Assembly: GCA_951406725.2 (NCBI GenBank)
Contig: OX597832.1
Coordinates: forward strand, 22,754,001 to 22,818,000
Direction of reading: 5' to 3'
DNA from: Octopus vulgaris
Taxonomy: Eukaryota
DNA: 64,000 nucleotides
The notes below the pieces were generated by a model. That model was not told where the DNA came from. It made no database searches and worked only from the letters and a program-made list of their open reading frames with translations. A program made the position numbers and the translations under genes. Shown here one piece after another: positions 17,076 to 52,094 of the stretch; the stretch's first letter is position 1; each line of letters begins with the position of its first letter.

Positions 17076-17912
17076 ACGGTGAGCTAGTAGAATGGTTAGT
17101 GCACAGTGTGGGCTGGCACAAACGTTGGCATGTTAGCAAAGGCGACGGGCTGGCACAAACGTTAGTACACCGGGCGAAATGTTTAGCGGTATTTCGTCTG
17201 TCGTAACGTTCTGAGTTCAAATTCCGCCGAGGTCGACTTTGCCTTTCATCATTTCGGGGGTCGATAAATTAAGCACCAGTTATGCACTCTGGGTCGATGT
17301 AATCGACTTGATCCGTTTGTCTGTCCTCTCTATGTTTAGCCCCTTGTGGGCAATAAAGAAATAGGTATTTCGTCTGTCGCTACGTTCTGAGTTCAAATTC
17401 CGCCGAGGTCGACTTTGCCTTTCATCCTTTCAGGGTCGATAAATTAAGTACCAGTTACGCACTGGGGTCGATGTAATCGACTTAATCCGTTTGTCTGTCC
17501 TTGTTTGTCCCCTCTATGTTTAGCCCCTTGTGGGCAATAAAGAAATAGGTATTTCGTCTGTCGCTACGTTCTGAGTTCAAATTCCACCGAGGTCGACTTT
17601 GCCTTTCATCCTTTCAGGGTCGATAAATTGAGTACCAGTTACGCACTGGGGTCGATGTAATCGACTTAATCCGTTTGTCTGTCCTTGTTTGTCCCCTCTA
17701 TGTTTAGCCCCTTGTGGGCAATAAAGAAATAAGAACGGTTAGCGCACAGGGTAAAATGATTTGCAACATTTAGTCCGTCTTCCCGTTGTGAGTTCAAATT
17801 CCGCCGTGGTCGACTTTGCCTTTCTTCCTTTTGAGATTCAATAAATTAAGTACCAGTTTAGTACTGAGATCAATGTAATCGACTTAATTCCTCCCCAAAT
17901 TTGCTGGCCTAG
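17076..17912 (+). mobile_element. Tandem multimer of SINE family 1
   Basis: Units restart at GGTATTTCGTC at 17188, 17364 and 17548 (periods 176 and 184 bp), followed by an older diverged copy. Confidence 0.9.
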
Positions 17913-19496: not shown

Positions 19497-19670
19497 AGTT
19501 AAAATATACTGCAGTGCTGAATTCGGTCTCAGCATAATGGCTGTGAATACACGCTACTGATAACGCTCAATGAGACTGGAATACGTCCAACGTTAGCATT
19601 CGCCGTAGCTAGGACAAGTTCCGTTTCCGTTATATAGAAACTGTGTTATCTAACACAACCCTTCCATGTA

Positions 19671-20141
19671 TTGGGTTGGCAACTAAGTTACCTCCGTTTT
19701 TTTTTTATTTTGGAATTGATTGCGTTTTTAAATTTTGGAATCTATTTTTTCCGAGAATTCTATTTTTGAATCATTTTGGAATCTATTTTATTTTTCAAAT
19801 TAATTTTTTGTTAATTTTTGTTTATTTTCAGATCACTAAAATGGAATGTCAAGTTAAGAAAAGCGAGCATTTTCGACAACTCCTTCTTTTTGCTTTTAAT
19901 CAAGGTTCTAAGGTCACAAAAGCTTCTCGCGAAATTTGTGATGCGTATGGAGAGGGTGCTATAGCTGAAAGAACCGCTCGTGGTTGGTATGCCAAGTTCA
20001 AAAAGGGAAATTTTGATTTCAGAGATGCACCTCGTTCTGGCCATCCAGTTGAGTTCAATGAAGAGCGATTAAACCAACTTTTGCACGAAAATTCTCGTCA
20101 AACGACAAAGGAATTCGCAGAGAAAAAAAAGGAATGCTCAA
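19671..20141 (+). mobile_element. Mariner (mellifera-like) 5' fragment: TIR and N-terminal HTH region
   Basis: TA|TTGGGTTGGCAACTAAGT TIR; ATG at 19841, MECQVKKSEHFRQLLLFAFNQG...WYAKFKKGNFDFRDAPRSGHP; truncated after about 100 aa. Confidence 0.9.
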
Positions 20142-20409
20142 TCCGGTGAGCTGAATACGTTGTACATTGATATTTATTTGCTTAATCAATCCCGTAATTA
20201 ATCGAGTTATCATCTAATTTATGAAGCAGTTTTCTTCCGAGCCAGTCCTTTCTGAGCTTTAAAAGCAGATGTTTGATGATATATTGGAAGATCTACATAA
20301 TCTAAAACAGAAGAAGAGTGTAGCTGAAAGTAGATGCCTCAGATTTCTTCTCATAAGTTCTTTTACTGTACCCTGTTTTTTGTCTGGAGAGATATTTCTC
20401 TATCAGATT

Positions 20410-32863: not shown

Positions 32864-33551
32864 CATTATTATTGTTATTATTATTATTAGTATTAGTATT
32901 AATATCATCATCATTATTATTATTATTATTATTACGAAGTGAACCATATTAAAGATAATCAAATCGATTAGTACCATTTTAAAGGAATATCTAATAGGAT
33001 GGTTTTTCTTTCAGTGGCATTAATGTAATAAGACGGTGACTTTGTGTTGACAGATATTATAGTTCACCAGACTAAACGCATTACATTATTTTCCTTCGTC
33101 TTCCCAGATTCTACATTCAACGTGAATATTCGGCCGATATCGATTTTTCGTTTCATCGATTACATAAGAACTCGTATCAGAACCAATATTTTCCTTTCTT
33201 TTAATGAAACGATCCTGATGTCTAAAGAATCCAATTACAATATATTGTTTTCTCTTTTTCTTAAGTCCATGTTGTTGTTTGTCTTGGTTTTTTTATTTTA
33301 TTCTGAACGATACTGGACTTATTTTATTATACTGTATTTTGTATGGCAGTTTTGAACAATAGCGTCGGTATGTTTTCAATTGAATAATCACCGGCTAACA
33401 GAGTTTACGTTGGCATGAAAAAGAAATACAAGGGTTTGTTTCTGCAACTCGGGCCGAACAAATATCACGGGAGGTTTCGTTGGAATTCACCAATTTATCG
33501 GTTTTCCCGCCAATGTTAATAGCTTTCGTTGATGTAAAATAGTAATGGTAA

Positions 33552-33886
33552 AGACGCCCTTCGGCCATGAATGACCATGGGATTGCACTTAGAAGGTTAC
33601 TCTCTGAGGCACAAGTCCGGGCCTGTTTTTTTTATGGAAGACCAGCGTTCATCCATGTACACCAGTTGCCCCTCTCTACGCCCCGATGTTGCCCAAGGGA
33701 AAGGCAAAGGCCGACACAGCTTGGCACCAGTGACGTCGCAACTCATTTCTACAGCAGAATTAACTGGATCAACGTAAAATACAGTGTCTTGCTCAAGAAC
33801 ACAACACACAGTCCGGTCCGGGAATCGAACTCACTACCTCATGATTGTGAACCCGCAGATCTAGCCACTGAACAATGTGCCTTCAC
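33552..33886 (-). mobile_element. SINE family 4
   Basis: Homologous to 9963-10302 and 61510-61833. Confidence 0.8.
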
Positions 33887-33926
33887 CTTTCGTGTATATA
33901 CATCATAGATATATATGCTCATAAAT

Positions 33927-34295
33927 TAAGGCGGCGAGCTGGCAGAGTCGCTAGCACGCCGGGCGAAATGCTTAGCGGTATTTCGTCTGCCGATACGTTC
34001 TGAGTTCAAATTCCGCCGAGGTTGACTTTGCCTTTCATCCTTTCGGGGACGATAAATTAAGTACCAGTTACGCACTGGGGTCGATGTAATCGACTTAATC
34101 CGTTTGTCTGTCCTTGTTTGTCCCCTCTGTATGTAGCCCCTTGTGGGTATTTCAGCAGGTATTTCATCTGCTGCTACGTTCTGAGTTCACATTCCGCCGA
34201 GGTTAACTTTACCTTTCATCCTTTCAGGGTCGATAAATTAAGTACCAGTTATGCACTGGGGTCGATGTAATTGACTATTCCCCTCCCCCAAAGAG
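33927..34295 (+). mobile_element. SINE family 1 dimer
   Basis: Full head and body followed by a restart at GGTATTTC. Confidence 0.85.
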
Positions 34296-34674
34296 TAATC
34301 TACGAAGAAGACTCATATTATAGTCTTAGTTTCCTTCTACTGGCTTCCATTCTAAGAAAAATTATCATAGAGTACATATAAAGAAAACAAAGCAAAAGAC
34401 AAGAAAGTTTCTTTATAAACTCTTTTACTTCTTTCAGTCATTTAACCGTGGCCATGCTGGAGCACCGCCTTTAGTTGAGCAAATCGGCCACAGGGCATAT
34501 TCTTTGTAAGCCTATTACTTATTCTATCGATCTGTTTTGCCGACCCGCTAAGTTACGGGGACGTAAACACACCAGCATCGGTTGTCAATCGATGTTGGGG
34601 GGACCAACACACACAAACACACACACACGCACACAAACACACACACACGCACACAAACACACACACACACACAC

Positions 34675-34716
<42 letters not shown>

Positions 34717-34838
34717 TATAATTAAGGGCTAAAGAGGGTTATTCTAAAGCCAATACACTGATTTATCCACTTATAATCCGCTTGCTACAGGAGAATTGAA
34801 ACTGAAAACGGGCAACTAACCTTTAGAAAATTTAAATT

Positions 34839-34914
34839 TCGTTATCTCTATATTGAATCAATTTCGGAATTAATCTTATAAAAAGATATATTCTTTCTTC
34901 AGTAGAGCTTTCGA
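34839..34914 (-). ncRNA. Type I hammerhead ribozyme (copy 1)
   Basis: Reverse complement of 35267-35342. Confidence 0.75.
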
Positions 34915-35266
34915 TGGGATATAAATAAAATACTCACGTATGATCATGGAAAAAGCACAAGCTAAAAACATAACTACACTTGAGTACATCACTTATATCT
35001 AAAAATAAAAATTCTTTGGTCAGCCTCAGAAACAACGTCTTGACCTTTCGCCGCTACAAATTGTAATGGTTACCGGTCCTCCCGTAGCAAGCAGCGAGTT
35101 TACTACTAACAATATAGGATGAAGTCCCTTTCTCTACAGAAAAGGAATCCATCAGGAAGCGTGGGCAGTATATTTAAAAAAACCGTTACGGTTGAAGTAT
35201 AAACATCATATAATTAAGGGCTAAAGAGGGTTATTCTAAAGCCGTGAGTATTTTATTTATATCCCA

Positions 35267-35342
35267 TCGAAAGCTCTACTGAAGAAAGAATATATCTTTT
35301 TATAAGATTAATTCCGAAATTGATTCAATATAGAGATAACGA
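35267..35342 (+). ncRNA. Type I hammerhead ribozyme (copy 2)
   Basis: TCG-aaag-CTCTA (stem I), CTGAAGA core, stem II GAAT/ATTC plus ATCTT/AAGAT, GAAA, stem III ATTG/CAAT, AUA triplet (cleavage predicted after 35330), TAGAG-ataa-CGA. Confidence 0.75.
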
Positions 35343-36208
35343 AATTTAAATTTTCTAAAGGTTAGTTGCCCGTTTTCAGTTTCAATTCTCCTGTAGCAAG
35401 CGGGTTATAAGTGGATAGATCAGTGTATTGGCTTTAGAATAACCCTCTTTAGCCCTTAATTATATGATGTTTATACTTCAACCGTAACGGTTTTTTTAAA
35501 TATACTGCCCACGCTTCCTGATGGATTCCTTTTCTGTAGAGAAAGGGACTTCATCCTATATTGTTAGTATATATATATATTTATAAATACGACGGGCTTT
35601 GAGGTTCCTACCAAATCCAGTCACAAGGCTTTGGTCGGCCCGAAGCTATAGTAAAAGACACTTGCCCAAGGTGCCACGCAGTGGGAATGAAACCGGAACC
35701 ATCTCGTTGGTAAGCAAGCTACGTACCACACAGCAACTCCATAAAATGCATATCTAATCTACTTTAAACATACTTAAAGTGAGGACAGCGAAACTGGTTA
35801 ATAATATGATTTTCCTGCAGTAAAATCTCTTTTGTTTACAACATAAAATAAAATTTAATCAGCAAAAAAAGGTGTTTTATTATTTTTTTCTTTGGTGTGG
35901 GTTTTATCTATGCGACAACTGTCAGCACAATGTGAAATCCCTTCCTTGTCAAAACACATACTAATATTTTTCCAATAAAACATTTACATGGAAAAATTAC
36001 TTATGTAAAAACAATTTTCAGTCAAAATGTTTTTTTTAGAGATATATAACAGAAATATTTTTTCACACATGTTAAAAAAACCTATCTTGTTGTATTCAAA
36101 TACATACATGCACTCACACACGTATACATCTATCTAACTATCTAGCTGGCAAGCTAACTGCCTTTCTACTTATCTGGCACTGTCTGTCCTTCTATTTATC
36201 TAACACTG

Positions 36209-36339
<131 letters not shown>

Positions 36340-36367
36340 CTATCTATCTATCTATCTATCTATCTCC

Positions 36368-36410
<43 letters not shown>

Positions 36411-36413
<3 letters not shown>

Positions 36414-36672
36414 AACTCTTCTGTGCATGCACACTAAGATTTAATGTTCAAGCTCATGTCCGCCGTTTACATCAGTGCTTGGAAGGAATGTGTGTAGCGT
36501 GTGATCGTCGCATTGACCATGACAGAGAAAGTTGAGCAGAGAATCTGCATCAAATTTTGCCAAAAGCTTGGTTATACCTGATTCCAAAAAGTTTTCATCG
36601 TTCTCGAACCAGTTAAGGAGATCTTGTATAACTGAAACCCGAGTGTCTTTTTGGTCAGCTGAAAGCAGCTTC
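36411..36672. mobile_element. Fragment of the two-5'-end mariner derivative (same family as 54533-55409)
   Basis: MTEKVEQRICIKFCQKLG on + joined to inverted LLSADQKDTRVSV..ENDENFL on -. Confidence 0.8.
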
Positions 36673-36783
36673 ATGGCCCGACCATCATTCCACCAACGAT
36701 GCCAGCTCAAAATATGACAAACCCTCTACCTCCGTTGACATCTCAAACTATTCTTATTGTTCCAGTTGATTGATACCCAACCT

Positions 36784-37458
36784 TTACTCCAGCCATCTGG
36801 TCCGTCTGGTCAGCCATCTGGCACGGCATTCGTCTGTGAACAGAACTATTGAAAAATCTGTCTTTACGTATTCTTCTGCACATTTCAGTCTCTTCTGATT
36901 ATGAACAGCCTTCAGAGGGGGCCTTGTAACAGGTTTAACATACCTGGTTACCTGCTTCAAGAGGCGGCACCTGGTATTTTTCCACACGTCTTCCCTGCCG
37001 CAACGTTTGAAGATTTCCCTACTTGTCAGACATGGGTTCTGCACAACTTCCCTTTCCCCCACATTACAAAGTACAATTCGACGCAACCCTCGACTTACCC
37101 TTATTTGCATTCGACCGGACAGAAATAGGATACTGCACAAATTTCTTCTCTGTTTGGTGGTCTCTTCCCAATATTTTTCATATTTCTATGGTTGTTTTTC
37201 ATTTTCCAAGCGCTGACGCGATGGTAGACTTCTCATCCGAGGTAAGATCACGTTTCTGACCCATTGGGATAGCAGAAATGTTTCTGCTACAAGATAATAA
37301 TCGCCGTTTGCTTTCGTTTGCGCAGATCCGTTTTATTGTAACAGAATGTGAGGAGATGGGTGTTGCCAACAGTCAGCGGGAAAAAAAACAACTGGTTTTG
37401 AACGAATATACATTTATTTATTGAGAGAAGGTTGATTTGCCTAATAATGTAGCGTATA
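36784..37458 (-). mobile_element. Tc1-superfamily (TRT/DD37E-like) 5' fragment
   Basis: ATG at 37264, MGQKRDLTSDEKS..LGRDH.T; KTDFSIVLFTDECRA followed by a frameshifted DQTDQM/DGPDGW-like segment; TIR-like ATTATTAGGCAA near 37438-37449. Confidence 0.75.
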
Positions 37459-37511
37459 TAGATATGTATATATATATAATGTATGTGTACATATGTGTAT
37501 ATATATATATA

Positions 37512-51689: not shown

Positions 51690-52090
51690 GTCGGTTAGCT
51701 GGCACAATCGTTAGCACGCCGGGCAAAATGCGTAGCCGTATTTCGTCTGCCGTTACGTTCTGAGTTCAAATTCCGGCGAGGACGACTTTGCCTTTCACCC
51801 TTTCGGGGTCGATTAAATAAGTACCAGTTATGCACTGGAGTCGATATAATCGACTTAATCCATTTGTCTGTCCTTGTTTGTCCTCTCTGTGTTTAGCCCC
51901 TTGTGGGCAGTAAAGAAATAGGTATTTCGCCTGTCGCTACGTTCTGAGGTCGACTTTGCCTTTCATTCTTTCGGGGTCGATAAATTAAGTACCATTTACG
52001 CACTGGGGTCGAAGTAATCGACTTAATCCGTTTGTCTGTCCTTGTTTGTCCCCTCTGTGTTTAACCCCTTGTGGGTAGTAAAGAAATAGG
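51690..52090 (+). mobile_element. SINE family 1 dimer
   Basis: Junction at 51920/51921. Confidence 0.85.
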
Positions 52091-52094
52091 TTAT

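Follow-up and report, generated by a model that had tools for sequence, protein, structure and literature searches.

An ORF-less 492-nt hammerhead element of Octopus vulgaris with the fixed ends, tail and inversions of Penelope-like elements

The described systems closest to the element reported here are the metazoan non-LTR retrozymes and the endonuclease-bearing Penelope-like elements. Excerpts of two sources give retrozyme unit sizes of 51-972 nt and describe a weak helix II and dimer-dependent cleavage in axolotl retrozymes (PMC7229834; 10.64898/2026.07.22.740005), and metazoan retrozymes are argued to derive from pLTRs in sections of a recent study (Li, Clavereau and Pollet 2026, 10.64898/2026.07.22.740005). 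An inverted copy and a tail of 30-40 nt on one end are standard for Penelope, according to parts of two reports (Craig 2021, PMC8557442; Arkhipova 2013, PMC3846280). In vitro, the Penelope-like enzyme of Anolis nicks and extends both strands and starts reverse transcription at two internal sites that bound the tail (Frangieh 2024, PMC11167929); insertion in that system did not need hammerhead cleavage, and uncleaved RNA was the main substrate (PMC11167929). The origin of Penelope tails, tandems and inversions is still debated, and the mobilisation of retrozymes by Penelope has so far been a proposal. Regarding cephalopods, neither our literature searches, made on listings and in one case loosely, nor a term search of PMC7229834 returned a retrozyme example; the portion of a squid genome paper that touches the subject counts 235 Rfam hammerhead loci without analysing them.

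The window, i.e., the whole stretch of 64,000 nucleotides of the O. vulgaris genome that was analysed (contig OX597832.1, positions 22,754,001 to 22,818,000), contains one copy of the element in head-to-head configuration. Self-comparison recovered a direct repeat (34706-34751 and 35198-35243, spacing 492) together with the inverted arms (34706-34938 with 35243-35475, and 35104-35243 with 35430-35569), so the anatomy, blocks and repeats described in the first-pass annotation are reproduced. The left arm (34713-35243, ribozyme-sense on the minus strand) has 531 nt, that is, one 492-nt unit plus 39 nt, and ends 3' at a fixed site named E1; its two 39-nt A blocks are identical. The right arm (35243-35569, ribozyme-sense on the plus strand) has 327 nt and ends 3' at a second fixed site, E2. 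Each arm carries one hammerhead, and one base, 35243, is common to both arms at their junction. The arms differ by exactly two mismatches over 327 nt, at 35404 and 35418, the number previously given, and the copy is young, as was supposed. Also as described before, both ribozyme-sense strands point outwards and end in TA, the left one in a (TA)n target tract (34675-34712) and the right one in a TA-rich remnant of the target (35570-35581). The proposed insertion into a TA tract within a host repeat holds, since both flanks match one high-copy repeat, interrupted into a left half at 34419-34604 (+) and a right half at 35608-35740 (+). In two of the five other copies of this repeat that were examined (L243 and L247), the halves lie close to each other and flank a (CA)n(TA)n tract; L244 and L246 have other sequence between the halves, and L245 is devoid of the right half. 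Elsewhere in the window, a common interspersed repeat is found in tandem copies with a period of 168-184 (33977-34276, 17188-17731 and 51778-52091), and an open frame at 19613-20149 (+) has an end that resembles the helix-turn-helix region of a mariner-type transposase.

The element is a dispersed family without an ORF. A search of the genome (2.8 Gb in 227 contigs) with the 492-nt unit gave 1259 first-look candidates, of which 40 were scored and proved 91-100% identical, and an exact pattern made of the hammerhead core plus stem III gave 191 matches against 0 for the reversed control, indicating that the motif is not a product of chance. From 171 loci fetched through three DNA searches, the pattern search and retrieval by genomic place, we obtained 119 distinct insertions with no duplicates left, a pool enriched for long and young copies; the subfamilies, about 98, 95, 91 and 80% identical to the unit of the window, are represented by 46, 21, 37 and 15 loci, respectively. 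The unit is closed on itself, as it is in the subfamily of ~80% identity and in families further removed, and folds far better than shuffled sequences (z -7.0). Its longest stop-free frame is of only 39 aa in the sense and 37 aa in the antisense direction, which confirms the absence of protein-coding capacity proposed at the outset. Looser patterns revealed sister families of the same plan (526 and 640 matches, 0 in the controls); the loci that were read, 20 and 30 respectively, are non-coding as well, and their units prove closed on themselves in every copy of sufficient length. The sister hammerhead families (L222-L241 and L248-L277) share the E1 motif and a two-hairpin tail, and little other sequence.

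We express positions in the unit as phases on the ribozyme-sense strand, phase 1 being 35243 on the minus strand and the predicted ribozyme cut (after 35330) being phase 393. The 182 arms of the 119 loci finish at E1 (93 arms, phase ~36-46, blurred by TA microhomology), at E2 (75 arms, phase ~132-143) or elsewhere (14 arms, mostly as a result of later damage or alignment drift). Because these two sites, about 100 nt apart, account for 168/182 arms, a random permutation of the 3' ends is rejected, and the variable permutation points that had been expected of a circular template were not seen at this end of the copies. The 5' ends are variable; they are distributed around the unit, clustering where it is AT-rich or forms hairpins. 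The repeat of block A at the termini, formerly taken as a signal from the template, marks the place where this particular arm was 5'-truncated.

Arms on opposite strands were found in 60 of the 119 loci, 52 of which pass a strict head-to-head test. Fifty of these 60 loci combine one E1 with one E2, ten have an unclassified end, and E1+E1 or E2+E2 pairs are completely missing (0/60). The single-arm loci (57) end at E1 in 38 cases, at E2 in 17 and at other positions in two; a further two loci are complex. Two fixed ends, one of each per inversion, are the signature of the Penelope "tail", here with a tail longer than published. That the inversion was created by the assembler is practically negligible as an explanation: inverted repeats in microsatellite-rich DNA do assemble poorly, but the E1+E2 layout recurs at 50 loci with differing junctions, and the arms differ by point changes.

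The tail, i.e., the ~100 nt between E1 and E2, occupies 35469-35569 (+), with a second copy at 35104-35204 on the minus strand, and includes two hairpins. Hairpin 1 (35480-35492, +) has an ACC..GGT stem that is invariant in 17/17 representative tails, its motif having been a selection criterion for those 17. Hairpin 2 (35520-35555, +) is kept with varying sequence in related families, and in a rough alignment of the 17 representatives its pairing is maintained despite sequence change. Tail length is ~95-101 nt in the window family and in the sister families, out of the 30-40 nt of Penelope, which is a typical value rather than a strict criterion.

The inversions might alternatively come from self-priming or fold-back on one strand instead of priming on both strands, a mechanism that part of an earlier report proposes for rotifer Penelope elements with palindromic junctions (PMC3846280); in L036 and L048 both arms do begin at the same phase. 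As a general origin this is most improbable, given that in most inversions the arms differ both in starting phase and in the fixed site where they end, each end being joined to TA, and that the overlap of the arms at the junction is -6 to +10 nt in 37/38 strictly aligned inversions. Palindromic junctions, with both arms beginning at about the same phase, occur in a minority of inversions (L036, L048 and L222) and fit fold-back priming.

The coding Penelope-like elements of the octopus genome, which encode an RT with a C-terminal GIY-YIG domain, are built on the same plan: a pLTR with a minimal hammerhead, E1, a tail of 35-55 nt, E2 and a TA target; their inversions also carry one end of each kind (L114, L337 and L345). 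Since this plan is found both in coding elements and in the literature, the one-of-each rule is a known signature in counted form. The trans mobilisation by Penelope-type machinery suggested earlier is supported by the two fixed ends, the inversions and the TA target, all as in the coding elements, and we are highly confident that the element is a non-autonomous one mobilised by Penelope.

We searched for an autonomous partner at the level of the GIY-YIG family, by two protein searches and in 40 larger stretches, a non-exhaustive sampling; among the 120 loci fetched for Penelope-like coding sequence, belonging to several distinct families, none had a matching pLTR or tail. Two Penelope-like proteins used in tblastn gave no match in the window, and no ORF for RT plus GIY-YIG exists in the unit. 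Profile matches at coding loci were, judging from their coordinates, separate insertions on the other strand or beyond the TA tract, and a 42-nt match in L122 was discarded as a link to a partner for being AT-rich and outside the hammerhead of L122. The first-pass annotation had set against its own reading the case in which all copies share fixed ends as the pLTR of a coding Penelope element; the fixed ends are there, but no ORF-bearing parent was found. It is very unlikely that the copies are 5'-truncated pLTRs of a coding element that escaped detection. In favour of this reading, a pLTR would likewise have the fixed ends, the tail, the inversion and the TA target, and only the best candidates were scored in the genome searches; against this, upstream of the hammerhead, arms of up to 909 nt return to the tail of their own unit, in four subfamilies as well as in the sister families, a longer shared upstream body appears in 0/119 loci according to the printed 5' flanks, and the pLTRs of the sampled coding families are unrelated.

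Two coding families deserve mention in their own right. L132 and L135 (G000:C16:20834500-20842500 and C6:133343000-133351000) represent a young, high-copy Penelope-like family whose 781-aa frame encodes RT plus GIY-YIG; upstream of it lies another, separate frame of up to 479 aa that had no confident Pfam match. The minimal hammerhead of this family has UUGAUAA in place of CUGANGA, and the tail is of 36 nt. Another very young coding family (L328-L335) has a 776-aa frame, many near-identical copies and a 3' region in which TG repeats abound as far as the first run of TA. Different Penelope-type insertions often adjoin in one TA tract (L145, L133, L157, L173 and L029).

The putative type I hammerhead lies at 35267-35343 (+), with the cut predicted after 35330, and an identical copy is found in the left arm at 34838-34914 (-), with the cut predicted after 34851 on the minus strand. 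The core (CUGAAGA at 35279 and GAAA at 35316), the stems, the AUA triplet ending at 35330 and the A.C mismatch at the base of stem II are as originally described; this stem base also has an extra unpaired A that the description lacked. In passages of one paper (Cervera 2014), Penelope hammerheads are described with an additional base between positions 9 and 10.1. The Rfam scan suggested as a check did not support the motif, as no hammerhead family matched at E<=1 in 33000-37500, and the best fold of the isolated motif is an inactive alternative (-12.7 versus -8.8 kcal/mol for the hammerhead fold). Across the families, 17 representatives show the hammerhead pairs formed in 95% of cells, as opposed to 30-40% in slid controls, which were preferred over shuffles because related sequences can beat the latter. 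Two-sided changes were seen at 11/16 pairs, including all five of stem I. As selection of the sequences demanded the core letters and not the pairings, the invariance of the core letters is no evidence.

The near-palindromic stem III (35319-35329, +) bears on how the ribozyme could act. Its innermost pair swaps between A-U and G-C (9/8) round a centre of 1-2 nt that is unable to close a loop, and the calculated energy is +1.8 kcal/mol as a hairpin and -6.7 kcal/mol as a self-duplex. From this palindrome, the hammerhead is predicted to cut, likely, as a dimer, a behaviour that is known for metazoan hammerheads with a palindromic helix III, according to parts of two papers (Cervera 2014; Cervera 2020, PMC7229834). 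The G10.1-C11.1 pair is kept in 22/116 locus-level motif counts in family A, and the rest are nearly all A.C or C.C, including the youngest subfamily, that of the window. In sections of the Xenopus work, 8/9 predicted retrozyme dimers failed to cleave (Li 2026, 10.64898/2026.07.22.740005). By the pairing data, the motif is real and was under selection; present activity in the window subfamily is uncertain, and we give an even chance to dimer-dependent cleavage being still active there. In vivo cleavage seemed at first, with 30 loci, to have left a trace in the genome; this reading was abandoned, as there is no excess of 5' ends at the predicted cut (3-4/168 arms within 5 nt versus ~1.7 expected).

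Just upstream of stem I, a splice-donor-like GTRAGT motif occurs in all families (35244-35249, +, and 34932-34937, -, in the window), a few bases after CCATG or CATG, and pyrimidine-rich AG sites are located at about 35385-35395 and 35528-35539. The GTRAGT motif may be the relic of a pLTR intron that held the ribozyme. Canonical-looking type I hammerheads unrelated to the window family were seen in L150 and L151, in the latter as an inverted pair.

We then considered the form of the template. That it was longer than one unit, as first proposed, is borne out by the classified arms, 52/168 of which exceed 500 nt in a sample enriched for long arms; the longest has 909 nt, and 8 of the 19 arms of 680 nt or longer hold two exact-pattern hammerheads in tandem. 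Arms of this size imply that the RT passes the cut site and continues beyond unit length. No arm reaches two full units; in a length-neutral sample the count is 0/74 versus ~2.1 expected, which is not significant and insufficient to establish a hard length cap; the missing two-unit arms hint, if weakly, at a linear template of finite length.

Where a position is covered twice by an arm, alleles present in at least six loci occur in both units in 225/245 cases, those common to 2-5 loci in 5/51 (one unit only in 46/51), and private ones in only 2/56; the alleles of 2-5 loci are probably, for the most part, recurrent mutations. A lineage of linear dimers should keep differences specific to the upstream or the downstream unit, yet such differences recur in a second locus in only 2/118 instances, which points to a monomer stage. 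This homogenisation points to a monomer intermediate that is probably circular, although monomer template jumping or conversion between units would look alike and the circle is simply the simplest form of that stage. We consider a circular monomer moderately probable as the template. In the main competing account, a non-autonomous element would be copied from linear read-through transcripts of a tandem master, or from monomers joined by RT jumping, with a weakened or dispensable hammerhead and no circle. The lack of arms attaining two units, the repeated loss of the stem II base pair, the scarcity of private alleles common within a locus, as from few master sources, and the main use of uncleaved RNA by the Anolis element in vitro (PMC11167929) speak for it, and jumping or unit conversion would still fit the allele data. 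We regard it as unlikely, as the inherited differences expected between dimer units almost never recur and the 5' ends pile up neither at the start of a transcript nor at the predicted cut.

Other readings of the variation were discarded. An RNA quasispecies is rejected by the rarity of private alleles common to copies within loci, and A-to-I editing of the template by equal numbers of A>G and T>C changes (102 versus 102 over 119 loci, p=0.12); the two arm mismatches of the window copy are both A>G on the sense strand. In L003, one private allele (phase 377) is present in both units and both arms, as from one template or source for the three copies. Among the sequencing runs listed as containing the stretch, none is recorded as RNA; contigs of four of the runs cover the element in fragments and include no junction that would tell a circle from a repeat.

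What we observe is a closed non-coding unit, two fixed 3' ends with one of each per inversion, hammerhead covariation, variable 5' ends and arms longer than one unit. The best explanation, and in our judgement a probable one, is that the window holds a young copy of an ORF-less 492-nt retrozyme, made from a circular template by a Penelope RT-endonuclease acting in trans on (TA)n. Where a transcript contains two hammerheads, these are predicted to cut as a dimer, and the monomer so released would be ligated into a circle. A Penelope-type RT-endonuclease, supplied in trans, would likely copy the element RNA into (TA)n, nicking both strands of the target such that one cDNA would begin at E1 and the other at E2; both would proceed backwards around the template to variable stopping points, and their ends would join with little or no microhomology to form the head-to-head inversion. 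A single-arm copy would appear when a single cDNA is made.

On a broader level, it is possible, and we offer it tentatively, that a superfamily of self-cleaving RNA circles records Penelope integration, with one enzyme complex priming both nicked strands of the target from two structure-marked sites ~100 nt apart, used strictly one per strand, and a hammerhead repeatedly weakened until only two-ribozyme precursors cut. The family has numerous small, young insertions devoid of an ORF, and from their DNA alone one can read the two start sites, the one-of-each rule and the monomer bottleneck. If the proposal is true, the 492-nt RNA would offer a minimal substrate on which to test the formation of Penelope tails and inversions, and could serve as a compact cargo signal for TA-targeted insertion. 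A specialist will be moderately surprised, since the class of element, its layout and its target were already known; what is added is the one-of-each rule in counted form, a long and structured tail, and allele evidence that points to a monomer stage.

With the metazoan non-LTR retrozymes, the octopus element shares a non-coding unit of a few hundred nt with low G+C (34%), one type I hammerhead per unit in head-to-tail arrangement, and co-occurrence with Penelope-like elements. It differs in that its copies are dispersed partial tandems of less than two units, often with an inverted arm, rather than arrays, and in that its two fixed ends are mapped, whereas its circle and its cleavage are predictions. 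The likeness to the endonuclease-bearing Penelope-like elements (Neptune, Hydra and Poseidon clades) comprises the 5' truncation, the partial tandems, the inverted 5'-truncated copy, the one-ended tail, the (TA)n target, the hammerhead and the two RT start sites. Unlike them, the octopus element is without an ORF and without sequence link to any sampled coding family, its tail is of ~100 nt and not 30-40, and its hammerhead is full-size, with a long stem II arm, in contrast to their minimal one. L1 twin priming also produces a head-to-head inversion from priming on both target strands; in the octopus, the second start lies at a fixed position downstream of the first one, the arms overlap widely and there is no poly(A). 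The inverted layout and the TA target are standard Penelope features, and the element, known here from DNA alone, appears to work like a non-autonomous Penelope-like element and has the sequence hallmarks of a retrozyme. It is a new family of the metazoan non-LTR retrozymes, or non-autonomous Penelope-like elements, a kind that is already known.
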